64,000 bases of DNA from an uncultured delta proteobacterium (GTDB lineage Bacteria > Desulfobacterota > Binatia > UBA9968), in contig CAWDPO010000033.1 in NCBI GenBank assembly GCA_963804165.1, positions 43,846 to 107,845 on the forward strand, read 5' to 3'. A program made the translations under genes and the position numbers. The notes beneath the pieces were generated by a model. The model made no database searches and was not told the DNA's origin. It saw nothing but the letters and a program-made list of their open reading frames with translations. Positions 1,140 to 57,610 of this stretch are shown here, piece by piece; the stretch's first letter is position 1, and each line of letters begins with the position of its first letter.

Positions 1140-2177
1140 ATGAGACTGCCGCACCGCGATCCGATTCAACTGGGTCCAACGCCCTACGAGGCGTTCCAAG
1201 CAAAGGAGGGGATTCCTTCCGTTACCGGATTTTTTGTCGAAGACTTGATGGACGTTGAGGTCAAACCGTGGGCACGGATGGGGGCGCTGGGTTCGTATCT
1301 GAACATGGGCGAGCAGCAGGAGAACGACGCTTACATTTGTGAAATTCCCGCCGGCAAACAGACCGAGCCTCAGCATCATATGTTCGAGACGCTCGTGTAC
1401 ATACACAAAGGCCGCGGCGCCACCACGGTTTGGTTCGAGGGCGATGCGAAGCAGACTTTCGAGTGGGCCGCCGGGGCGATTTTCGCGATTCCTTTGAACG
1501 TTTCATATCAGCACTTCAATGCTTCCAACGAGCCGGTGCGTTTTCTTGCCGGCACCAACGCCCCGCACGTGATCAATCTATTTCACAACGAAGACTTTAT
1601 TTTTCGCAATCCGTTTCAGTTTCGCGACCGCTTCAGACCGGATCGTGAATTTTTCAACGAGAACAAAAAACTGACGATCCGTTCGTGGGAAAGCAACTTA
1701 GTGCCGGATGTGAATGAATTCGCCCTCGACGACTACCCGATGAAGGGCAAAGGCGTGAAGATCATGCGCTTCGGGCTCGCCGGCACGACCTACGGGTGCC
1801 ATATTCAAGAATTTCCCGCCGGAAGCCGGAGCACGTTTCATCGCCACGGCCCCGGCGCGATCGTTTGCGTGACCAAAGGCGAAGGATTCGCGATGGTGTG
1901 GCGTGAGGGCGGGGAACGCACGCGCTTCGAGATCAAATCCGGCTCGATCTATTCGCCCGGCGATTTGATGTACCACGGACACTTCAACACCGGTCACGGT
2001 GTACTGCGCCATTTTGCCATGCGCGGGCGCAGCCCAAAGTTCAGCCAAGACCGCTTTCGCACCAAACTGCACGAGATGATTCCGTTCGACGAGGAGCCGG
2101 CGGATATTCATCCGATGTTTTTGGGAGAGTTGAAGAGGAAGTGTGTGAAGTCGGAAATATCGGTGGTGCAAGAATAA
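1140..2177 (+). CDS. Bicupin protein (gentisate 1,2-dioxygenase-like fold)
   Basis: Two cupin motifs, QHHMFE...YQHFN and HRHGPG...HGHFN. ATG 1140 with GGAG upstream is preferred over TTG 1038. Confidence 0.8.
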   Translation: MRLPHRDPIQLGPTPYEAFQAKEGIPSVTGFFVEDLMDVEVKPWARMGALGSYLNMGEQQENDAYICEIPAGKQTEPQHHMFETLVYIHKGRGATTVWFEGDAKQTFEWAAGAIFAIPLNVSYQHFNASNEPVRFLAGTNAPHVINLFHNEDFIFRNPFQFRDRFRPDREFFNENKKLTIRSWESNLVPDVNEFALDDYPMKGKGVKIMRFGLAGTTYGCHIQEFPAGSRSTFHRHGPGAIVCVTKGEGFAMVWREGGERTRFEIKSGSIYSPGDLMYHGHFNTGHGVLRHFAMRGRSPKFSQDRFRTKLHEMIPFDEEPADIHPMFLGELKRKCVKSEISVVQE

Positions 2178-2211
2178 GAGTCGTTCAAGGTTCAAGGTTG
2201 GGAGAAAAAAA

Positions 2212-3669
2212 ATGTCCGAGCTTGCTTATCACGATTTTAGGAGTTTCGTCGAAGAAGCGAAGAAGATTAGCGATTACCGGATCATTGAAGGCGCCGATTG
2301 GGACGCCGAGATCGGCGCGCTGGTCGAATCGACGGCCGAGCTGGTGCCGCAGCCACCGATGTTGATCTTCGACAAGGTGAAAGGTTATCCGGCGGGATAT
2401 CGAGTTTGCAGCTTGCCTTACGCGGCCTATCGCCGGGTTGCGCTCGCGTTGGGATTACCCACCGACAAACCGAAGTTGGAAATACTCCGGCTGGCGGCGC
2501 GCAAGGTGAAAAACGCAGAGCCGATCGCGCCGAAGGAAGTCAGCACGTCACCTCTGTTCGAAAACAAGTTTACGGGTAGCGACGTTAACCTGCTTAAATT
2601 TCCCGCCCTGCGTTTTCATGAGAACGACGGCGGGCGTTACTTCGGTCCGGGCGGCGGGTTGATCAACCGCGATCCGGATTCCGGTTACATCAACACCGGC
2701 ACTTATCGCATGCAACTCCACGATCGGAATACGCTTGGTTTATGGATGAGTCCGGGGCAAAACGGCCGGCAAATTTGCTCGAAGTATTGGGAGCAGGGAA
2801 AGAGCTGCCCGGTAGTGGCAAGCTACGGGCAACATCCGCTGGTCTTCATGCCCTCGTACACGAAGTTCCCGTATGGCCGCTCCGAGATGGAAATATCCGG
2901 TGGACTGATCGGTAAGCCGCTGGAAGTTTTGCGCGGGCCGATTACCGGACTGCCGATTCCCGCGTCGTCCGAAATTGCCATCGAGGGCGAGATTCCGCCG
3001 CCGTCCGAAGAAGCGCGGCCCGAAGGACCGTTCGGCGAATGGCCGGGCTATTATTCCGGTGGCACGGGCGGCACGGGAGAAAATCAGCCGATCATTCGAG
3101 TCAAGGCGATTTATCACCGCGACGATCCGATTCTCGAAGATGAGGCGCCGCTCTGGCCGGGCGCGGTGAAAATGGATTTGCATATCTCGGCGGGCGTGCT
3201 CTGGGATCAACTGGAAAGCGCCGGCATTCAGGACATCGTCGGGGTGTACAATCACACTTCCTATCTCACCGTCGTTTCGATCAAGCAAAAATACGCCGGG
3301 CATGCCAAGCAAGCGGGTACGGCCGCGCTCAGCTGCGCCGCGGCAAATCGCAACGGCCGCTACGTCGTCGTGGTCGATGAAGATATCGACCCGACCAACG
3401 TGAAGGAAGTGCTGTGGGCGATGATGACGCGGGTCGATCCGCCGACCAATATCGATATCATCGACGGCTGCTGGAGCACGCCGCTCGATCCGCGCATGCC
3501 GCCGGAAAAGAGAGACAACAAGGACCACACCAACGGCCGGGCGATCTTCTATGCGGTGCGCCCGTTTGCTTGGAAGGACAAGTTTCCTAAAGTCAGCCGC
3601 TCGAGCCGCGAGCTGCGCGAGAAAACTATCGCAAAGTTTAAGGGCATTATTCCGTTTCCGGGGGCATGA
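2212..3669 (+). CDS. UbiD-family (prFMN-dependent) decarboxylase
   Basis: GADWDAEIGAL, NTGTYRMQ, EGPFGEWPGYY, VVVDEDIDP..EVLWAMMTR and WSTPLDP motifs. Confidence 0.92.
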   Translation: MSELAYHDFRSFVEEAKKISDYRIIEGADWDAEIGALVESTAELVPQPPMLIFDKVKGYPAGYRVCSLPYAAYRRVALALGLPTDKPKLEILRLAARKVKNAEPIAPKEVSTSPLFENKFTGSDVNLLKFPALRFHENDGGRYFGPGGGLINRDPDSGYINTGTYRMQLHDRNTLGLWMSPGQNGRQICSKYWEQGKSCPVVASYGQHPLVFMPSYTKFPYGRSEMEISGGLIGKPLEVLRGPITGLPIPASSEIAIEGEIPPPSEEARPEGPFGEWPGYYSGGTGGTGENQPIIRVKAIYHRDDPILEDEAPLWPGAVKMDLHISAGVLWDQLESAGIQDIVGVYNHTSYLTVVSIKQKYAGHAKQAGTAALSCAAANRNGRYVVVVDEDIDPTNVKEVLWAMMTRVDPPTNIDIIDGCWSTPLDPRMPPEKRDNKDHTNGRAIFYAVRPFAWKDKFPKVSRSSRELREKTIAKFKGIIPFPGA

Positions 3670-3684
3670 GGACTGGCGCAAGTC

Positions 3685-3844: not shown

Positions 3845-5122
3845 ATGATCAGCAAAGAAGAGAACGATCTTCTAACTCAAACCGGCCCGGGCACACCGGC
3901 GGGCGAGTTGATTCGCCGTTATTGGCAACCCGTGGCGCTCGCCGAAGAGTTGCCTGCGGGTGGCGCGCCTTTGAGCGTGCGGATTTTGGGTGAAGATCTG
4001 GTCCTGTTTCGCGATCAACACGGACGAGTAGGATTGCTAGGGATTCACTGCTCGCATCGCGGCACGGATCTTAGCTACGGGCGGATCGAGGACGGCGGTT
4101 TGCGCTGTCTCTATCACGGTTGGCTTTACGATATTAACGGCCGCTGTCTCGAACAGCCCGGCGAGCCCGGCGGCGGCGAACATCGCGATCAGATTCGCCA
4201 TCGCGCCTATCCGTGCAAAGAAGTAGCGGGAGCGATCTTTACTTACATGGGCCCGGGAGAGCCGCCGCTCCTCCCCAATTATGATTTTCTCAAAGCGTCG
4301 CCCGATCATCTTTACGTGTGCAAAATTTTTCACGAGTGCAATTATCTCCAAGCCAACGAAGGCAACATCGATCCCGTTCATCTTTCCTTTCTCCATCGAT
4401 TTCTTGAGAAGCGCGACGAGAGTTATCGCGGAGTACGCGGCGCCGAGGAGTCGCACTATAACCTGGTGGCGAGAAATTCGGCGCCGATAGTGGACGTCGA
4501 GCTGGCGGATTTCGGCGTGCGCATTTACACGGTGCGAACCCTCGAAGACGACAAATCGTATTTGCGGGTTTCGTACTTCATTCTGCCGAACTTCAGCGCT
4601 TTCCCGGGACAGACCGGCGGCGAAGGCTACTCGGTCAATTGGCATGTGCCGATCGACGACACGCATCACTGGAAGTACACGTTTGTCTATAGCGCGGGCG
4701 CGCCGCTGCGCAAGGATTTGGTCAACCGCGAGCGCTCGGAGCTCGGTCCGGATTACCGCTTGGTCCGCAACGGGGCCAACCGCTTCATGCAGGACCGTGA
4801 CGCAATGCGGGACAAAACTTACGCGGGAATGGGCTCGGGCTTTCAGGCTCATGACGCGTTCGCCACGGCGAGCCAAGGCCGGATCCAAGACCGCGGCGAG
4901 GAGCGGTTGGTGTCATCGGACAAGGCGATCGTCGCAGCGCGCAAGCTGATGGAGAAAGCGATTCGCGACGTGCAGGACGGCAAAGATCCGCCGCATGTCA
5001 TTAGGAACGCCAACGAAAATCGTTTTCCTCATTTTATGGTGCTCTCCGACATGATCCCGAGCAGCAGCGATTGGCGGCAGTACGCCAAAAATCTCGAAAC
5101 CCAAGCGAGGGCAAAAGTCTGA
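3845..5122 (+). CDS. Rieske non-heme iron oxygenase alpha subunit (phthalate 4,5-dioxygenase/LigX-like)
   Basis: CSH...CLYH Rieske motif, EGNIDPVHLSFLH mononuclear Fe motif, QAHDAFA and SSDKAIVAARK. Confidence 0.92.
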   Translation: MISKEENDLLTQTGPGTPAGELIRRYWQPVALAEELPAGGAPLSVRILGEDLVLFRDQHGRVGLLGIHCSHRGTDLSYGRIEDGGLRCLYHGWLYDINGRCLEQPGEPGGGEHRDQIRHRAYPCKEVAGAIFTYMGPGEPPLLPNYDFLKASPDHLYVCKIFHECNYLQANEGNIDPVHLSFLHRFLEKRDESYRGVRGAEESHYNLVARNSAPIVDVELADFGVRIYTVRTLEDDKSYLRVSYFILPNFSAFPGQTGGEGYSVNWHVPIDDTHHWKYTFVYSAGAPLRKDLVNRERSELGPDYRLVRNGANRFMQDRDAMRDKTYAGMGSGFQAHDAFATASQGRIQDRGEERLVSSDKAIVAARKLMEKAIRDVQDGKDPPHVIRNANENRFPHFMVLSDMIPSSSDWRQYAKNLETQARAKV

Positions 5123-6306
5123 CTCAGATTCTTCGTGTGGGCATGGCCGGCCTCGGCGTGGCGAGCACGCAGATCATGCCGCCGATCGCCGCGTTGCCCT
5201 ATATTAAAATTACCGCCGCCGCGGACACGCGCACCGATGCACTGGCGAAATTTCGCGAGACTTACCACGGCGAAGCATTTGCGAGCGTCGAAGCGATGTG
5301 CGAGAGCGCCGACGTCGACGCGGTTTACGTCGCCACGCCGAACCAGTTGCACGTCAAGCATGTGATCGCGGCAGCCGAGCGCGGGAAGCACGTCATCGTC
5401 GAAAAGCCGATGGCGACGTCGATCGCGGAGTGCGACGCCATGAACGAAGCGGCTGAGAAATATGGCGTCAAGCTGCTGTGCGGCCATACGCACAGCTTCG
5501 ATCCGCCGATCCGAAAGATCCGCGAGATCGTCAAGAGCGGCGAGCTCGGCAAGCTCTGCATGATCAATACCTGGAACTACAACGAGTTCATGTACCGGCC
5601 ACGCATGAAACACGAATTGGCCATGAGCCGCGGCGTGGTGCTCAACCAAGGGCCGCATCACGTCGACATCGTGCGCCTGATCGGCGGTGGCAAGGTGCGG
5701 AGCGTGCGTGCCATGACCGGCGTCTGGGACAAGGCGCGTGAGTGGGAGGGCAGCTATACCTGTTATCTCGAATTTCAAGACGGCACGCCCGCGACGCTGG
5801 TTTATAGCGGTTACGGTTTCTTCGATACGGCAGAGTTATTCAACTGGGTCGGCGAGGGCGGACAGTACCGAGCGCCGGAAACCAATCTCGACGTCAGAAA
5901 AAAGCTGCGCGAAGTGCGCACGGTCGAGGAAGAAGAACAGCTCAAAGAAGGCATGCGCTTCGGCGGCAAGCGCGAGGGCGAGTTCAGTCATGTCTGGAAC
6001 GGCGAGCGAAAACAGCCGTTTTTCGGATTCACGATGGTCAGTTGCGAGAAAGGGGATATTCGCCAGACACCCGACGGGCTTCGCATCTATGGCGAAACCG
6101 AGCAGCGCGAAGTTTCCTTGCCTGCGGGCGCACGCGGACGCGAAGCCGAAGTCGAAGAGCTCTACAACGCCGTCGTGCACAAGCGACCCGTGTTCCACGA
6201 CGGGCGCTGGGGCGCAGCGACGTTGGAAGTGTGCCTAGCGATGCTCGAGTCGGCGGAGAAGCGCAAAGAAATTTTCCTCTCGCATCAGGTGCCGAGTCCG
6301 GCGTAA
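5119..6306 (+). CDS. Gfo/Idh/MocA oxidoreductase, cis-dihydrodiol dehydrogenase (OphB)-like
   Basis: VGMAGLG, VYVATPNQLH, EKPMA, GHTHSFDPPI, RGVVLNQGPHHVD and HDGRWGAATLEVC. Start uncertain (CTG 5119 overlapping the Rieske stop, or GTG/ATG slightly downstream). Confidence 0.85.
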   Translation: MTQILRVGMAGLGVASTQIMPPIAALPYIKITAAADTRTDALAKFRETYHGEAFASVEAMCESADVDAVYVATPNQLHVKHVIAAAERGKHVIVEKPMATSIAECDAMNEAAEKYGVKLLCGHTHSFDPPIRKIREIVKSGELGKLCMINTWNYNEFMYRPRMKHELAMSRGVVLNQGPHHVDIVRLIGGGKVRSVRAMTGVWDKAREWEGSYTCYLEFQDGTPATLVYSGYGFFDTAELFNWVGEGGQYRAPETNLDVRKKLREVRTVEEEEQLKEGMRFGGKREGEFSHVWNGERKQPFFGFTMVSCEKGDIRQTPDGLRIYGETEQREVSLPAGARGREAEVEELYNAVVHKRPVFHDGRWGAATLEVCLAMLESAEKRKEIFLSHQVPSPA

Positions 6307-6362
6307 GGCAATGTCTAGCGTTTCGTGTCTAGCGTTTGGGGGTTGATCCGAATTACATTGCG

Positions 6363-7499
6363 ATGAACATGTTCGTCGGGCATTTACTTGTCAGTTTCGC
6401 AATTTGCTTGGCTTTCGGCGTTGCGGCGGATGGTGCTGAGTCACCGCCGGCGTGGCAAACGGAGTGGGAGCGGACGGTCAAAGCGGCGGAAGCGGAAGGA
6501 CAGCTGACTGTTTATATGTCCGGCTATAGCTCGGTCATCGAAGCGGGGGTGTTTCAAAAGGCTTTTCCGAAGATCAAAGTCACCATCGTTCCGGGAACGG
6601 GCTCGCAGCTGGCGCCGCGAATCGTCGCCGAACGCCGCGGTGAAAAATTTCTCGCCGATGTCTACAACGGCGGCGGGACTTCGCTGTATCAGGTCCTCTA
6701 TTTGGGCAAGATGCTCGATCCGATACGGCCGGCGCTCATGCTTCCCGAGGTCACGGATACCTCGAAGTGGTGGGAAGGCAAACATAAATACGTCGATCGA
6801 GAAGGTAGCTACATGTTTGTCTACGAGGGCAACGTGTCGTCGGGCGGCTCGCCGGCTTACAATACCCAGCTGATCAGTCCAAAAGATTATCGATCCTATT
6901 GGGATTTTCTCAATCCCAAACTCAAGGGCAAGATCGGTTCAATCGATATTCGCAAAGTCCGTGGGATCGGACCCTCGATGCAGTATCTGTACTATCACCC
7001 GGAAATCGGCGTAGAATTTCTCCGCCGATTTTATCAGGAGATGGACGTCAGCATGAGTGGCGACTTTCGACAGGCTATGGACTGGCTGGCGGCCGGCAAG
7101 GTCGCAGTCCTCCTACCGATGCAGAGTTCAGGGACGGCGAAGGCGAAGGCGCAGGGATTGCCAGTGGATGAATTCGCTACAAATCAGTTCAAAGAGGGCG
7201 TGAACATTTCGTCCGCCTTCGGCCAGGTGGCGCTCATGAACCGGGCGCCGCATCCCAATGCCGCCAAAGTCTTCGTCAATTGGCTGCTGTCGCGCGAGGG
7301 CCAGGCCACGTTGCAAAAAACTATGAGCACGCCCGGCGATCCCAAGAACTCACGCCGCGTGGACGTTCCTAAGGATCACATTCCAACCGCGGAACGGCGC
7401 CGTGATGGCATGAAGTACTTTGACATCGACGACCGCGAAACCAAGGATATCAATCCGGCAATCAAGTTAATCGACGAGATTTTTGCCGGGACGAAATAG
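6363..7499 (+). CDS. AfuA/FbpA-fold extracellular solute-binding protein, paralog 1
   Basis: Signal peptide, WQTEWERTVKAAEAEG, AERRGEKFLADV, SYWDFLNPKLKGK and APHPNAAKVFVNWLLSREGQ. Confidence 0.85.
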   Translation: MNMFVGHLLVSFAICLAFGVAADGAESPPAWQTEWERTVKAAEAEGQLTVYMSGYSSVIEAGVFQKAFPKIKVTIVPGTGSQLAPRIVAERRGEKFLADVYNGGGTSLYQVLYLGKMLDPIRPALMLPEVTDTSKWWEGKHKYVDREGSYMFVYEGNVSSGGSPAYNTQLISPKDYRSYWDFLNPKLKGKIGSIDIRKVRGIGPSMQYLYYHPEIGVEFLRRFYQEMDVSMSGDFRQAMDWLAAGKVAVLLPMQSSGTAKAKAQGLPVDEFATNQFKEGVNISSAFGQVALMNRAPHPNAAKVFVNWLLSREGQATLQKTMSTPGDPKNSRRVDVPKDHIPTAERRRDGMKYFDIDDRETKDINPAIKLIDEIFAGTK

Positions 7500-7568: not shown

Positions 7569-8738
7569 ATGTTGACCGCAGAAGAAAACGAAATGCTCAC
7601 AAGGGTCGGCCCGGGAACGCCGGCGGGCGAATTGCTGCGCCGTTATTGGCATCCTGTCGCGATTGCCGCCGACTTGACGCCGGAAAATCCGACTAAGTTC
7701 GTCCGTATCTTGGACGAGAATTTAGTATTGTTCGTGACGCCCAAAGGCGAGCCTGGCCTGCTCCACGATCGCTGTTCGCACCGTGGCGCCTCGTTGTCGT
7801 ATGGTCGTGTCGAAGAGCGGGGCCTCGCGTGCGCTTATCACGGCTGGCTTTATGACCCGAAAGGCAACTGTTTGGAAACGCCGGCGGAGCCTGCCGACAG
7901 TAAGTTTTGCCTCACCGTCAAACATAAAGCTTATCCGGTGCAAAAATTGGCCGGTCTGTATTGGGCCTATTTCGGACCTCAGCCCGCCCCGGTCATTCCG
8001 AAATATGATGTTTGGGCGCGTACCGACGGCTGGCACTGGCTGCGCGCACTGCCGCAGCTCGACTGCAACTGGTTGCAAGCGATGGAAAACTCCGTGGACA
8101 CGGCCCATCTGCACATCCTCCATCAGGAGCTGGTGACCGACGGTTTCAAGGTCGAGAGCACGACCCGCGGCACGATCGACAATCTGGTCAAGTATGAGAT
8201 GGAGGAGTTTACCCACGGCATTCTCAAGCGGCGGGTTTTCCGCGACGGCAAGGTGGAGGAACATCCGCTGCTTTTCCCCACGGTCTTGCGTCAAGCTAAC
8301 CGCACACAGATCCGCGTGCCGATCGATGATACCCATACTTGGATCGTCTACGTTCACTTTGTGCCCGATTCGGCCGAGCCGCGAGCGAACAAAGACGAAG
8401 TGCCGGTTAATTACCGCAAGCCTTTCAAAAATCCACTCGGTGCGCGCCATCCTTTTACCAAGTTCCGCCTTGATGAAGTCGACGCTCAGGATTTCATGGC
8501 ATGGGAAACACAGGGGCCGATTCTCGACCGCACGCGCGAAAGGCTGGCTGCGTCAGACCGCGGCGTGGTGATGTATCGCGAGATGCTGGCACGGGAGATT
8601 AAGAAAGTGCAGCAGGGAGTCGATCCAATGAACGTTTTTCGCGATCCCGATCACGCGATCATCGACACCCAAATGGAAAGCTCCCTGGAAGTCGGGAAGG
8701 CGGGATCGGTGCGCTACCACGTGCCGCCGGCACTATAG
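7569..8738 (+). CDS. Rieske oxygenase alpha subunit
   Basis: CSH...CAYH, ENSVDTAHLHILH and QDFMAWETQG. Confidence 0.92.
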   Translation: MLTAEENEMLTRVGPGTPAGELLRRYWHPVAIAADLTPENPTKFVRILDENLVLFVTPKGEPGLLHDRCSHRGASLSYGRVEERGLACAYHGWLYDPKGNCLETPAEPADSKFCLTVKHKAYPVQKLAGLYWAYFGPQPAPVIPKYDVWARTDGWHWLRALPQLDCNWLQAMENSVDTAHLHILHQELVTDGFKVESTTRGTIDNLVKYEMEEFTHGILKRRVFRDGKVEEHPLLFPTVLRQANRTQIRVPIDDTHTWIVYVHFVPDSAEPRANKDEVPVNYRKPFKNPLGARHPFTKFRLDEVDAQDFMAWETQGPILDRTRERLAASDRGVVMYREMLAREIKKVQQGVDPMNVFRDPDHAIIDTQMESSLEVGKAGSVRYHVPPAL

Positions 8739-8797: not shown

Positions 8798-9925
8798 GTG
8801 AAGCGATCGGGTCAATTCATTATCATTACATTGGTGCTCGGACTCATCGGAGTTGCCAATGCCGCCGAATCCCAACCCAATTGGCAACGCGAATGGGAGA
8901 AGGTCCTCGAAGGCGCGAAGCGGGAAGGCGAGGTGCGACTCTGGGGTGAACAAGAAATCACGCATCTCGACATCATTGCGGCATTTACCAAAGAATTTCC
9001 TTTCATCAAAGCCGTCAGCGTAAGCGGGCGGGTTGGGGATTTGATGCCGCGCATCGTCGCCGAGCGGCGTGCCGCGAAATTTCTGGCCGACATTTACAGC
9101 GGCGGTTTGGGCGGACGATCGTTTTTTGATTTCCACAAAGCCGGCGTGCTCGATCCACTCAAGCCGGTGTTGCTTCTTCCCGAAGTCGTCGACGGCTCGA
9201 AGTGGCTGAACGGCGAGCATTACTATGCCGACGGAGAAAAGCAGTTTGTCTTTATGTATGAGGGCAGCGTCGCTGGCGTTGGACTGCACTACAACACGGG
9301 TCTCGTCGATCCCAAGGAATTCAAGTCCTACTGGGATCTGCTCAATCCAAAGTGGAAGGGCAAGCTTCTGCTCTTCGAACGACCCGGGGTGGGCTCGCCG
9401 AGTGTGATTCGCTACTTTTACAACACGCAGCTGGGGCCGGATTTCGTCAAGCGCTTATTCAGCGAGATGGAGGTTACGGTTTCGCAGGACCGACGCCAAT
9501 CGAGCGACTGGTTGGCGTCAGGTAAATTTTCCATCTGCATCGACTGCGGCGACACCGACCGGGCAAAGCAGCAAGGATTGCCCGTCGATGAATTTCCCCA
9601 TGCGAACCTCAAAGAAGCGAGCTATGAAATCAGCACAAGCGGCAACAGCGGTTTGGCGCTCATCAACAATCCGCCGAATCCCAATGCGGCGCGGGCATTT
9701 ATCAACTGGTTTCTTTCGCGCAACGGCCAGACGGTGTGGCAGAGCGTCATGAACACCAAGGTGCAGGAGCCTTCCGATTCCATGCGCGTCGATATTCCCA
9801 AGGACAAAGTTGGCGCGCCGGCAAAGCGCGAAGAGGGCAAGAAATATCGCGTCAGCGGATTTCTCGATCCCGATCCGCCGACGAAATTGTTTAGAGAACT
9901 AGTGAGTAAAGAGAAGCGCAAATGA
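8798..9925 (+). CDS. AfuA/FbpA-fold solute-binding protein, paralog 2 (CIDC motif)
   Basis: Signal peptide, WQREWEKV, SYWDLLNPKWKGK and PPNPNAARAFINWFLS. Confidence 0.85.
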   Translation: MKRSGQFIIITLVLGLIGVANAAESQPNWQREWEKVLEGAKREGEVRLWGEQEITHLDIIAAFTKEFPFIKAVSVSGRVGDLMPRIVAERRAAKFLADIYSGGLGGRSFFDFHKAGVLDPLKPVLLLPEVVDGSKWLNGEHYYADGEKQFVFMYEGSVAGVGLHYNTGLVDPKEFKSYWDLLNPKWKGKLLLFERPGVGSPSVIRYFYNTQLGPDFVKRLFSEMEVTVSQDRRQSSDWLASGKFSICIDCGDTDRAKQQGLPVDEFPHANLKEASYEISTSGNSGLALINNPPNPNAARAFINWFLSRNGQTVWQSVMNTKVQEPSDSMRVDIPKDKVGAPAKREEGKKYRVSGFLDPDPPTKLFRELVSKEKRK

Positions 9926-9960
9926 CCCCAACAAAGTATTGCACTGTGGCAGTGTAGAGA

Positions 9961-12347: not shown

Positions 12348-12352
12348 CGGCT

Positions 12353-17172: not shown

Positions 17173-17261
17173 AATCGTGTTCGTGACTCGTGCTCGTGAG
17201 CGGGTGCGCATGAGTGCGACCAAGCGAAAAGCGCAGCGCTCGCGCGAAACGGAGAGATAAG

Positions 17262-18697: not shown

Positions 18698-18746
18698 TGG
18701 AGTGATTGGGGAATGGAGTACTGGAGTATTGGAGTGATGGGTGATG
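18690..18746 (+). repeat. Degenerate 8-mer tandem array (GGAGTRAT/GGAGTAYT)
   Basis: ggagtgat ggagtgat tggggaat ggagtact ggagtatt ggagtgat gggtgatg. Confidence 0.75.
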
Positions 18747-19907: not shown

Positions 19908-20020
19908 TTTTAGATTTTCGATTTTGGATTGGAGCAACAAAACATGAATGTGCAATTTCAGGTTCGATGGCTGGATTCTATTTCCCGCAATCGAAAATCG
20001 AGAATCCAAAATCTAAAATC
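19907..20020. repeat. Inverted pair of heptamer arrays (AATCYAA/AATCGAA)
   Basis: attttagattttcgattttggatt (19907-19930) and aatcgaaaatcgagaatccaaaatctaaaatc (19989-20020). Confidence 0.75.
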
Positions 20021-20987: not shown

Positions 20988-21033
20988 CAGTGGTCAGTTA
21001 TCAGTTACCGGCTGACAACACGGGAGCGAACTA

Positions 21034-28336: not shown

Positions 28337-28398
28337 CGGGCAATGGTGTCCGTGAAATGAAACAAGAAGCGCGAATGTGGCCTCGCGATCGATTCGAT

Positions 28399-28473: not shown

Positions 28474-28525
28474 TATAAGATAGTCGCTACGAATTTAAGA
28501 TTGATTCTCTAGGGAGGGCACACCA

Positions 28526-48641: not shown

Positions 48642-49546
48642 TCAGTTTAAATCCCAGTGTGCAAAACCCATGGCGCAGCCGACACCGGTGCTTGTGCGAT
48701 AGAGCGGCTGATAGTCGATCATCGTACCGGGTCGATTGGCCGCCGCGGCGGTGACGATCCAATTGCGGATTTCCGAAGTGCCTTCGACCAAAATTTCGGC
48801 GGGCATAGCGCTCATGCTATTTTAGATCGTTTTGCCGGAGTGCCTGGATGAAATCCTGATCCAGCTTTTCATCGATCTTGGTATGGCTGAGGCCGCCGGA
48901 GCCGACGATGACGACGCGTTCGTCGCCGGGTATTTGTCGTAACACTTGCGCGAGCGCGCGGCCGAAGTGCGCGCAGCGCTTCGCCGACGGCGCCGGCGGA
49001 TAGTAGGTGTTGACCATCACGGGAACTACGGCGTGCTTGGCCTGCGGGCTCACGAACTTGAGCACGCGCGCGAAGGCGTGGCCGAGCCCGCCGTCGTAGC
49101 GGGTTTTCTTGGAATAAGACGGATCGAAGCCTTCATCCATCAGGCCGTTCACAAGGCCTTCGGCGAGGTTGGCGTCGACGCGATACTTGGTGCGATTTTC
49201 CGACTTGGGCTGATTCAAATAGCGCAGGCTGAGGCTCGCTTCGACTTCCTCGCCCATGAAGATCGTAAACGGCGGCATGTTGTCGTCGACGAGATTTTCA
49301 TGCTGATCGTCGCCGACGACAACGAGAACGTCGGGATCAAAAGCTGCGATCTTTTCCCGCAGCTTGCCAATCGCCTCCATGCAGCCGTTCCATTTGGCCC
49401 ATTTGACTTCCAGAGTTTCCTTCTCCAGTCCCGGCTTATCAGGCAGGTGCTCGCTCTGCGCGCGTATTCAACAGATGCCAGTTGTCGGGATTGAGCATCA
49501 ACTGCGGCGCGTGCGACATGGCCGCGCAGCCGACTAGATTTGCCAT
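48642..49546 (-). CDS. LigB/MhpB-type (class III) extradiol ring-cleavage dioxygenase (two frameshifts, near 49452 and 48818)
   Basis: N-terminal AMSHAPQL; VVGDDQHEN, GHAF and GSGGLSH; the C-terminal GTSEIRNWI...PLYRTSTGVGCAMGFAHW is read in a shifted frame. Confidence 0.85.
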
Positions 49547-49608
49547 AGGTTTTTTCGTTCCGAGTTCAACGTTCAAAGTTCAAGGTTTGTCTCCCGCATG
49601 TGACCGGC

Positions 49609-50653
49609 CTACGCGCGCGCGGCTTTCATATCGGAAAGCTCCGGCACCGATAGGTTCAGCTTGAACCAGCTGCTGCCGCTGTCGTCGCTGCCGAACAGAT
49701 CGCCATTTCGCTGCGCGGCGTACATGCAATCGGCGTTGGCCGGATCGAAGGCGAAGCTTTCGACGAAACTCCGGTTCGCTTGGGACACCGCGCCGTCGAG
49801 TTTTTTCCAGCTTTGGCCGCTGTCGGTGGATTGAATGAGAAACGCTTCGGCGCCGGTGTTGCGCTTGCGCCATTGCCCGGGCTGGCCGTTGGCGACGGCG
49901 GAATAAAGCACGTTGTGCTTCTTTGGATGAATCGTCAGCGGCACCGAGTATTCTTCTTTGAACTCCATGGCCATCGGCGCCCAGTTTTTGCCGCCGTCGC
50001 TGCTGGAATAAAGCGCGCGGCCCGGGGCTTTACCCGCCCGGCAGTCGTGGCCGCCGGTGGCGATGAAAATTTTGTTGCTGTCTTCGGGATGGAGCACGAT
50101 GGTGTGCACGTCGCAGTCGAGGTTCTTGTTGAGCAGCTCCCAATTCTTGCCGCCGTCCGTGGTCTTGAGCATGTAGCCGACTTGCAGCGCCACGTACATA
50201 GTTTTCGGATCTTTGGGGTCGATGGTGATGTCGCGCACGTGCGGCTCGACGGTGGCGACAGGATAAGTGATCGTCGATACCCAGGGAATATTCCAAACCG
50301 AATCGAGGCGCTCCCAGCTCTTCGCTTCATCGCGGCTGACAAAGACATCGATGGGTTCGGTCCCGGCGTAGAGCGTGTTGGCATCGTGCGGATCGAAGGT
50401 CAAGCAACGCACTTTGCCCGGGCCGCGTTTGCCGTAGCAGGGCTTTTTCCAGCTCGCGCCGAAATCTTCGCTGACCCAGACGCCGTCGCCGCGCGTTCCG
50501 GCGAAAACTTTGTTCGGCGCATTCGGCGAAACCGCGACTTCCGGAATCTGCCCAATCTTTTAGCCCGTGATGTTCTTGTTTCCAGCTGTGGCCGTCTTCG
50601 CTCTTGAGCGTGACCACGCCTTCATCCGTCGCAACGTAAAGGATCGATGCCAT
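49609..50653 (-). CDS. BNR/Asp-box beta-propeller protein, no signal peptide (frameshift near 50548)
   Basis: Repeated S-x-D-x-G-x-x-W boxes (SEDGHSW, TTDGGKNW, SSDGGKNW, STDSGQSW, SDDSGSSW). Confidence 0.8.
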
Positions 50654-51901: not shown

Positions 51902-52654
51902 ATGCAAAGCAAGCCAAAAAATCAAAAAAGGCAGATTGAGAATTTGAAGCGCCGTCTGGTCGAGGGCATAGGCGTCATTACCGGCGAAGGCGTGCTTTCG
52001 GGATCGGGGCATTTGAGCGCACGCATTCCCGACACGGAAACTTTTTTGATTAACCCTCGTTTTGCCGGCGTGCTCGCCGATCCAAAGGATATTTGCATCG
52101 TCGGTTTCGACGGCAAGCGCATCGCCGGCGCGGGGCCGATTCCCTCGGAGACGCCGATTCACGCAGCGGTGTATCGCGCCCGCGCCGATATCGGCAGCGT
52201 GATTCACTGTCATGCGCGCGCGTCGATACTTGTCGGACTGCTCGACACCGGCCTGATTCCGTTCAACCGCGAAGCGCGCATCTTCGCCGATGGCGTGCCG
52301 ATTTTTCCCGATAGCCACGGCATCAACAGCTTCGCATTAGCCGAGCGCATGGTCGCCAATCTCGGGCCGCACTATGCGACGCTGCTGCGCGGCCATGGCG
52401 TCGTCGTCACCGGACCGGGGATCGAGGGCGCTTGTATTTCGGCGATTCAACTCGAGCGCGCCTGCCAGGATCAGCTGTTGATGATGAGCATCACCGAGCT
52501 CAAACCGATGGCCGATGCCGGGCGCGGCCGCAATAACGCGCGCCTGGAGAATCCTTACCGCGCTTGGCCGTTTCTGCTGTACAAACACAAGATCAAGTCG
52601 AAGGCGCAAATCCGCAAAGACATCCGCACATTGAAAGAAGGCGAACATTACTGA
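51902..52654 (+). CDS. Class II aldolase/adducin-family protein
   Basis: GHLSAR, PSETPIHAAVYRAR.D.GSVIHCH and LLRGHGVVV. Confidence 0.88.
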   Translation: MQSKPKNQKRQIENLKRRLVEGIGVITGEGVLSGSGHLSARIPDTETFLINPRFAGVLADPKDICIVGFDGKRIAGAGPIPSETPIHAAVYRARADIGSVIHCHARASILVGLLDTGLIPFNREARIFADGVPIFPDSHGINSFALAERMVANLGPHYATLLRGHGVVVTGPGIEGACISAIQLERACQDQLLMMSITELKPMADAGRGRNNARLENPYRAWPFLLYKHKIKSKAQIRKDIRTLKEGEHY

Positions 52655-52720: not shown

Positions 52721-53747
52721 ATGAAAAACTGTTCGGCGATGAAAAAAGGTACTTGGATATTTGCCAGCCTTGCGTTCGTGTTGATGCCCCGGATGGCTTT
52801 GGCACAAGACAAGAAACTCGATTCTTTTACGATTTCCTATGCGTCGGTCTCGGGAACACGGGCGCCGTTATGGATCGCCAAAGATCTCGGACTATTCGAA
52901 AAGTACGGCTTGGACGGCAATCTGATTTACATCGCCTCCGGCGTGACTTCGGTCAATGCCTTGCTGGGCGGCAGCGTCGATATTATCGCCGCGTCGGGAT
53001 CGTCCGCCGTCGGCGCGGCGGCGCGCGGCGCGCCGTTGGTGATCGTCGCCAGCCTCGGACATATTGCCTATAAGCTGATTGCTCACCCGTCGATTAAATC
53101 GGTGCAGGAGCTCAAGGGCAAAATCATCGGCTCGAGCCGGATCGGCGCAGGTTCCGACTTCGCTCTGCAACGCTTGATGCCGAAGCTCGGCTTGGTTCCC
53201 GGCAAAGACGTGCAATTGCTCGCTACTGGTATCAGCGAGTCGGACCGCCGGATGCTGATGCTGTTGCAAGGCAAGATCGACGCGACGTTGGGAACCGAAG
53301 ATAATCTTCTTCAATTGGCCAATCGCGGCATGAAATTTTCCGTCTTGGCGGATCTTTACGACTCCGGTGTATTTACCACGGGCAGCGATATCGCCACGAG
53401 CCGCCAGTTGCTGAAACAACGGCCGAGACAGCTCAAGGCATTTCTCATGGCGGTTACCGAGGGAACTTGGGTCGGCCGCAACAATAAAGATCTGACCATG
53501 CGCATCTACCGCAAGTATATGAAGATCGAGGATCAAAAGATTGCTGGAGTCGATGCACAAAAATTATTTGCTCGGCTCGATTCCCGTGCGGCCGTTTCCG
53601 AACGAAGAAGCGATACAAAACGACATCGAAGACTTGAGCCAATCCTTGCCGCATCTACGCGGAAAAAAAGCCGCGGAGTTTCTCGATCTCTCGCTTTTGA
53701 AAAGCATGGATGAGGAAGGGTTCTTCAAGCGGCTGCAAGGAAAATAG
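52721..53747 (+). CDS. NMT1/SsuA-type substrate-binding protein (frameshift near 53540)
   Basis: Signal peptide, PLWIAKDLGLFEKYGL and ELKGKIIG. The C-terminal FLDLSLLKSMDEEGFFK is in the next frame. Confidence 0.82.
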
Positions 53748-54468: not shown

Positions 54469-55773
54469 ATGATTAGCACTGAAGAAAATCAACTACTCAC
54501 TCAAACCGACCCGCAGACGCCATGCGGCGAGCTTTTACGCCGCTATTGGCAGCCCGTCGCGCTTAGCGAGGAACTGCCGAAAGACGGCGCGCCGCTGAAG
54601 GTCAAAATCCTCGGCGAAGAATTAGTGCTGTTTCGAGACGATCAAGGCCGGCTGGGATTGATCGGGCTGCACTGCTCGCATCGGGGCACCGACTTGAGTT
54701 ACGGACGCATCGAAGACGGCGGGTTGCGTTGCCTCTATCACGGCTGGCTTTACGATGTCTGCGGCCGAATCCTCGATCAACCCGGCGAACCGGGCGGCGG
54801 CGCGAACAAAAACGAGATCCGCCATCGCGCTCATCCATGCCAGGAAGCCGGCGGGGTGATTTTCACTTACATGGGGCCTGGCGATCCGCCATTGCTGCCG
54901 AATTATGAATTTCTCACCGTGCCCGGAGAATACCGGACCGTGACCAAGATCTTTGAGACTTGCAACTATCTCCAGGGCAACGAAGGCAACATCGATCCTG
55001 TCCACCTTTCTTTTTTGCATCAATGTCTCGACGAAGCGCAGATCGCGCGGCGACGAACTGTACCGGGCAGCAACGCCACTGACAATAAATTGCTCGCTGA
55101 AGATATCGCGCCGACGATCGAAGTCGAAATCACGGACTATGGTCTGAGGATCTATACGCTCAGAGGCGCCGGGCGAGACAAACGTTATTTGCGGGTTACC
55201 AATTTTGTCATGCCCAATTTGTCCGTCTTCGGCGGGTCTTCCGTGGGACAAGGTTACTCGATTCACTGGCACGTGCCGATCGACGACACCAGCCACTGGA
55301 AATACATTTTCGCTTTCAGCCGCGAAAAGCCGCTAGATGATTTTATGCGAACGAGGAGCCGGGCGGAGCTGACCGCCGATTATCGATTGACGCGGAATGC
55401 TTCGAACCGCTATCAGCAAGACCGCGCCTCGATGAACACGCAGACTTTCACCGGCATGGGTTTGAACTTTCAAGCGCACGACGCGTTCGCTACGGAGAGC
55501 CAAGGCCCGGTGCAAGATCGCACGGCGGAGCATCTGGTGACTTCGGACAAGGCAATCGTCGCCGCGCGTAAATTGCTGTTGAACGCGATGAGAGACGCAA
55601 AGAACGGCCGCGACCCGCAACACGTAATTAGAGATGCCAAGACAAATCGGCTCCTGCACTTACAAGCGTTGTCGGAGGTCATTCCCCTCGCCGTGGATTT
55701 TAAGGGGCATATTCGCGAGCGGATCGCGGAAATCGACCGGGCCTACACATCACGCGGGGAAGGTCATCGATGA
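54469..55773 (+). CDS. Rieske oxygenase alpha subunit (close paralog of 3845-5122)
   Basis: CSH...CLYH, EGNIDPVHLSFLH and QAHDAFATESQG. Confidence 0.92.
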   Translation: MISTEENQLLTQTDPQTPCGELLRRYWQPVALSEELPKDGAPLKVKILGEELVLFRDDQGRLGLIGLHCSHRGTDLSYGRIEDGGLRCLYHGWLYDVCGRILDQPGEPGGGANKNEIRHRAHPCQEAGGVIFTYMGPGDPPLLPNYEFLTVPGEYRTVTKIFETCNYLQGNEGNIDPVHLSFLHQCLDEAQIARRRTVPGSNATDNKLLAEDIAPTIEVEITDYGLRIYTLRGAGRDKRYLRVTNFVMPNLSVFGGSSVGQGYSIHWHVPIDDTSHWKYIFAFSREKPLDDFMRTRSRAELTADYRLTRNASNRYQQDRASMNTQTFTGMGLNFQAHDAFATESQGPVQDRTAEHLVTSDKAIVAARKLLLNAMRDAKNGRDPQHVIRDAKTNRLLHLQALSEVIPLAVDFKGHIRERIAEIDRAYTSRGEGHR

Positions 55774-56745
55774 TGCGCAAGTTGTGGCTCGTGATTGCTT
55801 TGCTGCTGTGTGCCGGTTGGCTTGCGCGCGCAAGAGCGCTACACGATTGCTTATGCCGGGTTCGCCGGTTTTCAATCGCCACTGTGGGCGACTAAGGAGC
55901 TGGGCCTACTCGCCAAGTACGGCATTCACGGCGACTTGGTTTTAACGCCGGGCTCGACTCGTCAGATCCAGGCGCTGGTGGGCAATAGTGTTCACTTTGC
56001 TCAGGTGGACGCGGTAACGACGGTCAATGCCATCGCGCAGGGCGCGGATCTGGTCATGATCTCGGGTTCGCTCAATACGTTTCCTTTCAGCTTTGTCGCA
56101 CAAAAGGAAATCCGCAAGCCCGATGATCTTAGCGGTAAGAAAATCGGCATCGTCGGTTTCGGCGGCGCCAACGAGCTGGCGATATTGCTCGCGCTCAAAG
56201 AGTGGAATGTACAGCGCCAGGCCGTGACTCTCTTGCAGGCGGGCGGCGCGTCACAGCGTCTGGTCGCGATGAGCGCCAAAGCGCTCGACGCCACCGTGCT
56301 CGCGCAACCGGAGCTCGGCGAAGCGCAGCGCATGGGCATGAACGTGCTCGTGCACATGCGCGACATGAAAGCCGCGGCGTTTCCGATGAACGCCATCGTG
56401 GTGCGCCGGTCGTTCCTCCAGCAAAATCGCGACGTGGTCAAACGTTTCCAGGAGGCCTATGCCGAGGCGACCTATCAGTTGCTGAACAATAAAGACAAAG
56501 CGACCGCGGTATTGGCGAAATGGTTGCAGCAGAAAAATCCCAAGGCGATCGAGGAGACCTATCAGTACATCGCGACGAGTTTTTCTTTCCCGACGCGTAT
56601 CGCGGCGCAGGGGCTGCGCAACACTTTGGATATGGTCGCGCAGCGAAATCCGAAGATCGACATGAACCTTGCCAAATACGTCGATGAAAGCACGCTCGAC
56701 GAATTGGAAAAAGAGGGGTTCTTCAAGCGAATCACGGGAAAGTGA
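55770..56745 (+). CDS. NMT1/SsuA-type substrate-binding protein (indel in the signal-peptide region)
   Basis: ATGA overlap with the Rieske stop; PLWATKELGLLAKYGI, DLSGKKIGI and YVDESTLDELEKEGFFK. Confidence 0.8.
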
Positions 56746-56782
56746 CTCGCGTTCAAGGCCGTTCAAGACGAAGGCGGTTCTC

Positions 56783-57610
56783 ATGCCAACTAAAATTCAG
56801 CACGCGGCGATCGTCAGTGAAAACTTTGTGCGAGAAGCGAAATTCTATGAAGCCATATTCGGCATGAAGCGGTCGAAACCGGGCTCCGAAGAGGAACAGA
56901 AGGCGATCCGGAACAATTATGCCGTCAGCATCAGCGACGGTTACGTCGGTGTGACTGTGATCGGCAGAAAGCCGGGTTATATACCGGGCTTGCACCATTT
57001 CGGCGTCGATGTCGACGACGTCGACGAAGCGATGTCGCGTATCAAGAAAAATTATCCGGAAGTCGCGGTGCTCAAGCGGCCTTCCAACCGTCCCTTTGCG
57101 ACTTACGGCGCCCATGATCCTGAAGGTAATTATTTCGACCTCACGCAGGAAGGCATGTCGAACCGCCGCGATGTTTATGTGCAACAACAGCGTGAACAGC
57201 CGCGGCGCATACATCACCTCAAATTGCGGGTCATGAATCCGTCGAAGATTGCCGCATTCTACCGCGATTCGTTCGACCTGACCGAAGCGGAAAAGGCGCT
57301 CGAAGATCCGAACTTCTATCTCACCGACGGCAAGATGACACTGATCATCGCACCGTGGAAGATGAGCGATTTTGAAGGCGCCGGCATCGATCGACCGGGC
57401 TTGGAACATATTGGTTTTAAAGTCGAGAGCGTCGAGTCGGTGAAGACAGAATTGGCCGCATTGCGCGAAGCCAATGCCGAGATGCGCGAACGCATCATTA
57501 GCGAGCCGAGTGAAGGGGAAAGACGGCTTGCATTGATTGCGTCATGCCGCCATGGACAGCATCAATGTTCGAGTCCGGACGGGGTGTTTATCGATCTGTC
57601 GGAACGATAA
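56783..57610 (+). CDS. Two-domain VOC (glyoxalase/extradiol dioxygenase superfamily) protein
   Basis: IQHAAI, GLHHFGVDVDD, DPEGNYFDL, IHHLKL, GLEHIGFKVE and PDGVFIDL. Confidence 0.8.
   Translation: MPTKIQHAAIVSENFVREAKFYEAIFGMKRSKPGSEEEQKAIRNNYAVSISDGYVGVTVIGRKPGYIPGLHHFGVDVDDVDEAMSRIKKNYPEVAVLKRPSNRPFATYGAHDPEGNYFDLTQEGMSNRRDVYVQQQREQPRRIHHLKLRVMNPSKIAAFYRDSFDLTEAEKALEDPNFYLTDGKMTLIIAPWKMSDFEGAGIDRPGLEHIGFKVESVESVKTELAALREANAEMRERIISEPSEGERRLALIASCRHGQHQCSSPDGVFIDLSER

Follow-up and report, generated by a model that had tools for sequence, protein, structure and literature searches.

A 64-kb stretch of DNA from an uncultured delta proteobacterium of soil (assembly GCA_963804165.1, contig CAWDPO010000033.1, positions 43,846 to 107,845; GTDB lineage Desulfobacterota, Binatia, UBA9968), called the window below, carries between its positions 1140 and 57610 a real supercluster of genes, probably for aromatic-carboxylate catabolism. 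Genes for Rieske oxygenases, bicupins, decarboxylases, Gfo-type dehydrogenases and substrate-binding proteins (SBPs) recur there in shuffled order. We estimate at about 0.6 the probability that this supercluster captures and oxidises a range of carboxylated aromatic, possibly heteroaromatic, compounds; the single steps of the picture are each less probable than the whole.

Recurring families and their candidate functions

The 59 open reading frames (ORFs) of the window were scanned with Pfam and NCBIfam and compared all against all by BLASTP. In the window, where G+C ranges from 0.52 to 0.59, coding sequence takes up about 90%, and nearly all genes up to 47 kb lie on the + strand. By our tally of the Pfam, NCBIfam and BLASTP assignments, seven recurring families make up 34 of the about 47 gene loci inside 1140-57610. 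There are seven Rieske proteins with a LigXa_C catalytic domain (starts at 3845, 7569, 25850, 30926, 37582, 45819 and 54469) and four bicupins of about 370 amino acids (starts at 1140, 13611, 27233 and 28526). The whole window also holds two UbiD loci, two Gfo/Idh/MocA loci and 22 genes with a periplasmic-binding-protein fold: 14 of the SBP_bac_1/8 type (FbpA/MctA-like, called SBP1 here), six NMT1/SsuA-like and two of PF04392. Nineteen of the 22 lie within 1140-57610, and they face a single fused ABC permease gene and a single ATPase gene. A preliminary description of this DNA had proposed that a few families recur in shuffled units, and the assignments bear this out. The units bicupin, UbiD, Rieske, Gfo, SBP (1140-7499), Rieske, SBP, "His protein", SBP, SBP, bicupin (7569-14738), "His protein", SBP, Rieske, bicupin, bicupin, SBP, Rieske (23533-32137) and Rieske, Gfo, permease, ATPase, SBP, SBP, Rieske (37582-47057) were all found as it had given them. 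The stretch 14751-23264, which it did not itemise, consists of further members of the same families (SBP, SBP, UbiD, SBP, PF04392, PF04392, SBP).

Binding proteins account for 0.19-5.13% of the ORFs in 49 model strains (PMC9602780, in excerpt). About 20 of the roughly 53 window loci are periplasmic-type SBP genes (binomial P 6e-13 against 5.13%). The paralogues are old: protein identity is 32-62% among the Rieske proteins, 28-82% among the bicupins and 23-74% among the SBP1 proteins. Over the whole window no pair of DNA repeats exceeds 77% identity and no inverted repeat of at least 40 nt was found. The repeated pattern is therefore not an artefact of repeats collapsed or expanded in the assembly, and recent amplification is likewise excluded.

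In the alignment of the seven Rieske paralogues, the ligands of the Rieske cluster (Cys69, His71, Cys88 and His91, CxH...CxxH) and those of the mononuclear iron (His180, His185 and Asp308, a 2-His-1-carboxylate set) are invariant in 7/7. LigXa_C was matched in all seven at E ≤1e-5, once below the gathering score (25.5 bits) and once at it (27.1 vs 27). In keeping with the alpha-only type, the Pfam scans of the window detected no gene for a beta subunit. The closest solved structures are the phthalate dioxygenase (PDO) PDO_KF1 (7fjl, E 1e-69, residues 1-414) and the isophthalate dioxygenase IPDO (9ina, E 3e-67) of Comamonas testosteroni KF1, alpha-only Rieske enzymes with the same domain layout, together with RO_CH34 (7fhr), whose substrate is unknown (identities as given in excerpts of PMC8649396 and PMC12445078). 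That PDO and IPDO are the nearest solved relatives agrees with the preliminary description, which compared the cluster with the Oph phthalate route. Arg207 and Arg244 position phthalate in PDO_KF1, and each Ala variant lost turnover (PMC8649396, in excerpt). In A1 (3845-5122), the best PDO-like paralogue, the equivalents of Arg244 and Arg231 are kept as Arg in an alignment mapped by hand. The corresponding catalytic-domain region of the five B paralogues is too poorly aligned to PDO for residue mapping; for the B paralogue at 25850, the one of the five searched, the alignment with PDO is confined to the first ~190-210 residues (about 190 in the best stretch), which cover the Rieske domain plus the iron-ligand motif.

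A FastTree phylogeny of 118 sequences placed the seven window Rieskes in six separate clades with orthologues elsewhere, often in other phyla, the protein at 30926 standing alone on a long branch. This distribution fits distinct specificities and in this respect favours the earlier idea of parallel paralogous upper pathways.

SBP1 proteins carry Sec-type signal peptides and match the Pfam families SBP_bac_1, 8, 11 and 6. The best structural match of the model built for one of them (44657-45781, pLDDT 92.6) is the metal-citrate binder MctA (TM 0.6-0.73, ~20% identity), which is also the best profile match (E 5e-18). Further matches are FutA, FbpA, the sugar-phosphate binder AfuA, the pyridoxal phosphate (PLP) binder P5PA and a 2-aminoethylphosphonate binder. 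Judged by these models and matches, SBP1 is a predicted family of anion binders. The consensus and invariant columns of its alignment look unlike a classical iron-binding site, as read from the alignment summary, unmapped onto a solved iron binder. Searched with a profile, 1.84 billion cluster representatives (50% identity) yielded at least 2299 members of the subfamily at E ≤1e-30. The best NCBIfam partial matches of SBP, permease and ATPase all fall in one transporter type, PhnS2/U2/T2. Since one FbpB-type permease and ATPase face 13-14 SBPs of matching type, the convergence on shared transport proposed earlier is plausible.

BLASTP gives 57% identity between the two copies of the "His protein" (10095-10967 and 23533-24474). 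The second matches Pfam NMT1 (E 3.7e-7); the first has no Pfam match of its own and was assigned to the NMT1/THI5-like proteins because of this identity. Both lack a signal peptide, unlike the other binding proteins, and they are thus probably cytoplasmic proteins of the binding-protein fold and not periplasmic receptors; we corrected their label to cytoplasmic NMT1/THI5-like. The Atlas clusters of 23533-24474 are 59-100% NMT1, and a PDB sequence search found no solved relative. For 23533-24474 there are 981 relatives, the best 120 of them at 84-96% identity, from JGI, ENA and other metagenome sources, so that the source lineage appears widespread in the sampled environments. The idea that these proteins might be 4,5-dihydroxyphthalate decarboxylases of the same fold found support in none of four checks and was dropped. 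A tblastn search against 72,556 plasmids gave five weak matches (three annotated as ABC substrate-binding, two unannotated), the literature and PDB sequence searches gave nothing, and the Atlas clusters retrieved were all NMT1.

The bicupins lack a match to any specific Pfam or NCBIfam model. A 25-sequence profile aligned with the gentisate 1,2-dioxygenase (GDO) of Silicibacter pomeroyi (3bu7) in three short segments (E 1e-9), with the HRH motif and a later His among the aligned positions. The similarity to GDO is thus fragmentary, and the conserved His set of the window proteins (His241, His286 and His288 invariant, His243 nearly so) differs in lying in the C-terminal cupin. The predicted structure (pLDDT 90.2) consists of two beta-barrels, and all top Foldseek matches are bicupins. 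In nag-type clusters the gentisate dioxygenase gene follows that of salicylate 5-hydroxylase, and in the window a bicupin gene likewise directly follows a Rieske gene. That the bicupin cleaves aromatic rings is, in our estimate, an even bet.

UbiD 1 contains all three UbiD Pfam domains and scores just under its subfamily cut-off, and among the NCBIfam models the one for the PhtC decarboxylase comes closest to the class II aldolase-like protein. The single ORF of the LigB-type gene stops soon after the GSGGLSH motif, and the C-terminal part, kept in the orthologue of a related locus (L017, see below), is out of frame; the window copy is not a full-length catalytic subunit of a class III extradiol dioxygenase. 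Candidates for ring cleavage being multiple (four bicupins, the VOC protein and LigB), there is no single shared cleavage step, and the shared ring cleavage of the preliminary description was not upheld, its LigB gene being broken by two frameshifts.

Conservation of the neighbourhoods in related genomes

The alignment of the seven Rieskes was scanned against one genome per species, which gave 77 loci (L with a number) from several phyla. The best are labelled Candidatus Binatia (L001, 89% identity), Chloroflexota MAG262 (L002, 88%) and Candidatus Eisenbacteria (L076, 83%), followed by Binatia and "delta proteobacterium" metagenome-assembled genomes (MAGs) at 57-65%. The names on the NMT1-like relatives (Binatia or Binatus) and the taxa of the nearest Atlas clusters (most commonly Candidatus Binatota) agree on Binatia. 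L002, L018 and L076, labelled Chloroflexota, Verrucomicrobiia and Eisenbacteria, contain blocks syntenic with the window at 76-94% protein identity; for these differently labelled MAGs mis-binning seems likelier than recent transfer.

L002 has the compact order bicupin, UbiD, Rieske, Gfo, Rieske, SBP, SBP, UbiD, SBP, SBP, SBP, Rieske, bicupin. L017 reads SBP, NMT1-like, UbiD, SBP, SBP, SBP, Rieske, bicupin, permease, ATPase, with MFS, LigB and BNR genes on the other strand, and thus has no counterpart of 29.7-40.2 kb or of 43.3-47.1 kb of the window. L018 and L009 retain the order SBP, Rieske, bicupin. In the two closest loci, L001 and L002, the Gfo gene is directly followed by the orthologue of the Rieske gene at 7569, the SBP gene 6336-7499 being absent; this absence, with the 74% identity to the SBP at 11352, points to a lineage-specific insertion of a duplicate. 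By this comparison the window is an expanded member of a conserved Binatia cluster.

The ORFs of the 77 loci were labelled by best match to the window families. As the loci were picked by Rieske similarity, the frequencies describe the surroundings of that Rieske family and not whole genomes. A bicupin occurs in 28 of the 77 loci, SBP1 in 24, LigB in 22, Gfo in 21, the permease in 16, the class II aldolase-like protein in 14, the ATPase in 13, MFS_3 in 11 and UbiD in 5. Counting as adjacent those genes that run in the same direction no more than 400 bp apart, we found Rieske-Gfo in 12 loci (six taxon labels), Rieske-bicupin in 12 (eight taxon labels), SBP1-Rieske in nine (eight Binatia-type, one Alphaproteobacteria) and permease-SBP1 and SBP1-SBP1 in six each. 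The recurrence of the first three pairs shows that the neighbourhoods are not random in relatives. In our reading of the gene strings, SBP1 adjoins the permease or the ATPase in 14 of the 16 permease-holding loci. Two alphaproteobacterial loci, L013 and L014, line up Rieske, Gfo, class II aldolase-like, bicupin, (Amidohydro_2), ATPase, permease and three SBP genes.

The four SBP-Rieske pairs of the window are co-directional, with gaps of 38-126 bp. Conservation of particular pairings, which the earlier description had suggested as a check, is mixed: pair 24612/25850 is kept in four loci and pair 44657/45819 in one (L073), and pair 6336/7569 is not kept in the two closest loci; for pair 29691/30926 no orthologue was fetched. 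The identity ranks of SBP and Rieske agree across the window pairs, an observation that carries no weight with four pairs only.

Among the ORFs of relatives identified by Pfam (69, then 110 further) were RraA-like, Amidohydro_2, full-length LigB, DHDPS-like and TctC proteins. The RraA-like, Amidohydro_2 and full-length LigB proteins are of the kinds known from protocatechuate 4,5-cleavage; such lower-pathway genes (RraA-like, Amidohydro_2) were found only in the relatives' loci. Meth_synt_2 genes (cobalamin-independent methionine-synthase-like) lie within 3.5 kb of the Rieske gene in L057, L072 and L074 and might indicate methyl-group handling, i.e. O-demethylation.

Gene map, lesions and mobile elements

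Table 1. Position, strand and assignment of the genes and elements of the window. Percentages are protein identities.
Feature	Position	Strand	Evidence and remarks
Bicupin 1	1140..2177	+	Cupin_2; 93% to L002 orthologue from Met at 1140
UbiD-family decarboxylase 1, intact	2212..3669	+	UbiD_N, UbiD, UbiD_C; TIGR00148 237.7 bits vs cut-off 244.85; 96% to L002
Rieske oxygenase A1, PDO/IPDO-like, full LigXa_C	3845..5122	+	82% to L002
Gfo/Idh/MocA dehydrogenase 1	5071..6306	+	Pfam; 82% to L001; domain starts at residue 21, so real start probably near 5131
SBP1 (FbpA/MctA-like)	6336..7499	+	74% to SBP at 11352
Rieske oxygenase B1	7569..8738	+	Orthologues 89, 88 and 83% in L001, L002 and L076
SBP1	8798..9925	+	BLASTP paralogue group; signal peptide
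Cytoplasmic NMT1/THI5-like ("His protein")	10095..10967	+	57% to 23533-24474; no Pfam match; no signal peptide
SBP1	11241..12347	+	First canonical start codon only at 11352
SBP1	12344..13501	+	Pfam, signal-peptide prediction
Bicupin 2	13611..14738	+	BLASTP paralogue group; in bicupin alignment
SBP1	14751..15908	+	Pfam, signal-peptide prediction; 70% to L002
SBP1	16030..17172	+	Pfam, signal-peptide prediction; 72% to L002
UbiD 2, split by 1-nt deletion near 18291	17214..18697	+	Single open frame in L017, 510 aa stop to stop
SBP1	18741..19907	+	Pfam; 80% to L002 and L017
PF04392 (ABC_sub_bind, TrpX-like) binding proteins, two (19929-20987, 21034-22017)	19929..22017	+	Pfam, NCBIfam
SBP1, probable start Met 22173	22014..23264	+	Pfam, signal-peptide prediction; 72-75% to L017 and L018
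Cytoplasmic NMT1/THI5-like ("His protein")	23533..24474	+	NMT1 E 3.7e-7; no signal peptide
SBP1, disrupted	24612..25745	+	Intact in L018, L017 and L002
Rieske oxygenase B2	25850..27016	+	SBP-Rieske-bicupin order kept in L002, L017, L018 and L009
Bicupins 3 and 4 (27233-28336, 28526-29629)	27233..29629	+	Mutually 82% identical; Pfam, alignment, model
SBP1	29691..30800	+	Pfam, signal-peptide prediction
Rieske oxygenase B3, lone long branch	30926..32137	+	Pfam, tree
HIBADH/tartronate-semialdehyde-reductase-like dehydrogenase	32561..33436	+	Pfam, NCBIfam
SBP1	33774..34949	+	Pfam, signal-peptide prediction
IS3-family element (orfA 35087-35380, orfB 35377-36243)	35087..36243	+	Pfam, NCBIfam
IS30 transposase, in three reading frames	36341..37313	-	NCBIfam
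Rieske oxygenase B4	37582..38829	+	Pfam, alignment, tree
Gfo dehydrogenase 2, frameshift near 39886-39914	39009..40182	+	Pfam; comparison with relatives
Fused two-domain ABC permease (FbpB/PhnU2-like), 1-nt insertion near 40555	40277..42014	+	Single open frame in L017, 581 aa stop to stop
ABC ATPase (PhnT2/PotA-like, TOBE domain)	42108..43223	+	Pfam, NCBIfam
SBP1, frameshift near 43767	43298..44432	+	BLASTP paralogue group; comparison with relatives
SBP1, model pLDDT 92.6, closest fold MctA	44657..45781	+	Pair with Rieske 45819 conserved in L073
Rieske oxygenase B5	45819..47057	+	73% to L073
MFS_3 transporter	47283..48530	-	74% to L017; family in 11/77 loci
LigB-type extradiol dioxygenase, three frames (two frameshifts)	48648..49561	-	L017 orthologue one open frame, 327 aa stop to stop
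BNR/Sortilin-like protein, frameshift near 50548	49612..50653	-	Pfam; comparison with relatives
Class II aldolase-like, candidate decarboxylase	51902..52654	+	Aldolase_II; PhtC model 81.6 bits vs cut-off 200; family in 14/77 loci
NMT1/SsuA-like binding protein, signal peptide	52721..53713	+	Pfam, NCBIfam
Rieske oxygenase A2, full LigXa_C	54469..55773	+	62% to A1; Pfam, alignment
NMT1/SsuA-like binding protein	55795..56745	+	Pfam, NCBIfam
VOC (glyoxalase/extradiol dioxygenase superfamily) protein	56669..57610	+	Pfam; no solved relative in PDB sequence search
Thiamine pyrophosphate (TPP) enzyme (acetolactate synthase / oxalyl-CoA decarboxylase-like), frameshift, two overlapping ORFs	60900-62580	-	Outside cluster

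Thirteen lesions, none of them present in the relatives' orthologues, were found in nine genes: UbiD 2, the SBP gene 24612-25745, IS30, Gfo 2, the permease, the SBP gene 43298-44432, LigB, the BNR protein and the TPP enzyme. The SBP gene 24612-25745 has three of them: TGG changed to TAG at 24711-24713, one nucleotide inserted near 24838 and one deleted near 25011. The indels are single-base and lie outside long homopolymer runs, and homopolymer errors were accordingly rejected as the cause of the frameshifts. Recoding of TAG, which occurs in frame in two disrupted genes, was also excluded: TAG is the stop of 13 of the 49 genes tallied, and in LigB it precedes a frameshift. Clustering of the lesions is weak (~0.12 after correction; 0.03 for the lesion-free first 17 kb). 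The lesions may be real pseudogenes or sequencing errors; the frameshifted TPP enzyme, lying outside the cluster, hints that some are errors. An apparently intact IS3 and a broken IS30 on the opposite strand occupy 35087-37313, flanked by an SBP gene and by the Rieske gene that starts at 37582.

The frame of the SBP gene at 11241 is open across a normal signal peptide (11241-11352), yet contains no ATG, GTG or TTG upstream of 11352, so its start is non-canonical or lost. The BNR/Sortilin-Vps10-like protein adjoins LigB both in the window and in L017 (17798-18853), and its family occurs in 4 of the 77 loci. A small stand-alone NFACT-R_1 protein (RNA-binding, ribosome-quality-control type) is encoded at 53757-54203, between binding-protein and Rieske genes, with no evident link to the cluster. 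The ORF at 32215-32574 (orf119) is of low complexity, without family match, and is probably no gene. An Rfam search found no structured RNA in the window.

Explanations, known systems and significance

According to the explanation that we favour, the secreted FbpA/MctA-like, NMT1/SsuA-like and PF04392 proteins would each bind a different anionic substrate in the periplasm, and the FbpA/MctA-like ones would dock on a few FbpB-type ABC translocators, one of which is encoded in the window. The alpha-only Rieske enzymes, which belong to the phthalate/isophthalate-dioxygenase and LigXa class, would carry out the first oxidation in the cytoplasm with electrons from a reductase presumably encoded elsewhere. 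In a Rieske-Gfo module, dihydroxylation would be followed by rearomatisation of the cis-diol by the Gfo-type dehydrogenase and by removal of a carboxyl group by UbiD or the class II aldolase-like protein; in a Rieske-bicupin module, the hydroxylated ring would be opened by the putative gentisate-dioxygenase-like 3-His bicupin. The LigB and VOC enzymes are further candidates for ring cleavage. Old duplications would have enlarged the array, as would the insertion of additional binding-protein genes; if the 13 lesions are real, it would also be losing members. We put forward only tentatively a more specific proposal, that the SBP1 proteins are dedicated aromatic-carboxylate receptors, each tuned to the substrate of the Rieske enzyme encoded just downstream; an SBP-Rieske pair would then be a cassette for capture and first oxidation, duplicated, inserted or lost as a unit, with one translocator and one distant reductase serving all.

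Several observations weigh against the favoured explanation. A1 has Leu, Pro and Leu at the equivalents of Arg207, Ser179 and Ser182 (mapped by hand). With Leu in place of Arg207, a residue necessary in PDO, A1 is not a phthalate 4,5-dioxygenase in the strict sense, and the Oph phthalate route of the preliminary description is not shown. Pfam scans of the window found no reductase, ferredoxin, UbiX or transcription regulator, and none of the 69 + 110 relatives' ORFs is an FNR-type reductase, a ferredoxin, UbiX or a regulator. No catabolic gene of the window reaches an NCBIfam equivalog cut-off. In Foldseek, MncA, oxalate decarboxylase and vicilins rank level with or above GDO as matches of the bicupin (TM ~0.48). 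A 43% identical bicupin homologue on a plasmid of Phyllobacterium zundukense is annotated by PGAP as "hypothetical protein", and no Rieske gene lies in the 25 kb region around it; its neighbours are a tripartite tricarboxylate (TTT) transporter, a TPP enzyme, an oxidoreductase, RraA, an amidohydrolase and a class II aldolase. Disruption affects the sole permease gene as well as those for LigB, one UbiD, one Gfo and two SBPs. L001 and L002, the nearest relatives, do not keep pair 6336/7569. An SBP gene stands directly beside a Rieske gene in 14 of the 77 loci, namely 7/17 of the Binatia and "delta" loci, 3/3 of the doubtfully labelled ones, 3/12 of the Alphaproteobacteria and 1/33 of the Chloroflexota-type loci; this arrangement is thus largely of Binatia type. 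The funnel proposed earlier is supported in part, by the type and the clades of the Rieske enzymes, by the non-random neighbourhoods and by the plausibility of shared transport, and fails as regards the phthalate route and a single ring cleavage.

The binding proteins could instead be unrelated to the substrates of the oxygenases, as products of a lineage-wide proliferation of FbpA-like, SsuA-like and PF04392 receptors for iron, phosphonates, sulfonates, sugar phosphates or amino acids whose positions reflect duplication hot spots. Such an origin would agree with solved relatives that bind iron, sugar phosphate, PLP or 2-aminoethylphosphonate, with the best NCBIfam partial matches (PhnS2 and SsuA), with the restricted and mostly Binatia-type occurrence of SBP genes beside Rieske genes, with the inserted SBP gene at 6336 and with a subfamily as large as 2299 cluster representatives. 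It accounts poorly for the short gaps and common direction of the window pairs, for the conservation of pairs 24612/25850 and 44657/45819, for the alphaproteobacterial loci L013 and L014, where the transporter genes and three SBP genes continue a row of Rieske, Gfo, aldolase-like and bicupin genes, and for alignment columns that, in the unmapped summary, do not resemble the classical iron site. We consider it unlikely.

An explanation that we hold to be equally improbable concerns the chemistry: the Rieske enzymes would mainly be O- or N-demethylases or monooxygenases, like LigXa, VanA, DdmC, NdmA and GbcA, acting on methoxylated lignin fragments, alkaloids or quaternary amines, and not formers of cis-diols. 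Dihydroxylating PDO and IPDO are by far the strongest matches (E 1e-69 and 3e-67, against 1e-13 to 1e-15 for demethylases), and Rieske and Gfo genes adjoin in 12 of the 77 loci. The catalytic domain is nevertheless Pfam LigXa_C, the weaker PDB matches include dicamba O-demethylase, NdmA/NdmB and SxtT, NCBIfam gives partial matches to a sterol monooxygenase and GbcA, no Gfo gene adjoins five of the seven paralogues, and Meth_synt_2-domain genes lie near the Rieske gene in three relatives' loci; for some paralogues demethylation would be compatible with the favoured explanation. Less probable still is that the cluster is largely a decaying relic, with local importer, one UbiD, one Gfo and LigB non-working, or that the sequence is error-ridden, in which case the gene map is better than it looks. 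The single-base indels outside homopolymer runs and the TGG to TAG change, all absent from the orthologues, the IS3 and IS30 elements inside the cluster and the accumulation of three lesions in one SBP gene and two in LigB speak for damage of either kind, whereas about 44 loci are intact, among them all seven Rieske and all four bicupin genes, and the clustering of lesions is not significant; the frameshift in the TPP enzyme outside the cluster points to sequencing error.

It is textbook knowledge that genes for Rieske oxygenases, diol dehydrogenases, decarboxylases and ring-cleavage enzymes occur in clusters. As in the Oph and Pht operons, the window has a Gfo-type dehydrogenase gene, of the same family as OphB/Pht4, directly downstream of a Rieske gene; it differs from the PDO and Oph systems in having seven Rieske paralogues and not one, no reductase gene, and UbiD and the class II aldolase-like protein as decarboxylase candidates. 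UbiD-like enzymes have been placed in anaerobic CoA-dependent phthalate routes (PMC13040137, in excerpt). With the MctA and FbpA/FutA/AfuA systems the cluster shares the best structural and profile match, the signal peptide, a fused two-domain permease and a TOBE-bearing ATPase; it departs from them in its 13-14 paralogues per translocator, its oxygenase context and in that its binding proteins form a subfamily of their own, with at least 2299 clusters at 50% identity. One translocator can be served by several binding proteins that differ in profile, as with DppA1-5 of Pseudomonas aeruginosa (PMC12728205, in excerpt). Uptake of lignin-derived aromatics that depends on binding proteins is known, for example through CouPSTU and TarPQM of Rhodopseudomonas palustris (PMC3610893, in excerpt), and the phthalate ABC importers of Burkholderia and Rhodococcus each work with a single binding protein (PMC13040137, in excerpt). 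The literature searched describes no comparable number of binding proteins beside Rieske genes. The aromatic binders of CouPSTU, TarPQM and the phthalate importers presumably belong to other SBP families than those of the window. Nor did this literature, which omits most subscription journals, hold an account of aromatic-acid catabolism or binding-protein arrays in Binatia/Binatota. The supercluster differs from known ones in how many binding proteins, and of which type, are interspersed among the oxygenase genes, in having bicupins of an uncharacterised family as steady partners of this Rieske family, in the presence of UbiD beside oxygenases and in its uncultured host lineage.

The Binatia are uncultured, and proteins at 84-96% identity to those of the window occur in hundreds of metagenome clusters. 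The supercluster shows how these organisms may handle many dilute aromatic acids, with many high-affinity receptors, few translocators and diverged oxygenases. The bicupin and the cytoplasmic NMT1-like protein belong to families that are still uncharacterised, and both have conserved partners. A practical route to substrates is also at hand, since the binding proteins are soluble and readily screened and an orphan oxygenase is encoded next to each. If each SBP is indeed tuned to the substrate of the Rieske enzyme downstream of it, ligand screens would assign substrates to hundreds of Rieske oxygenases that are now orphans in uncultured phyla of soil.

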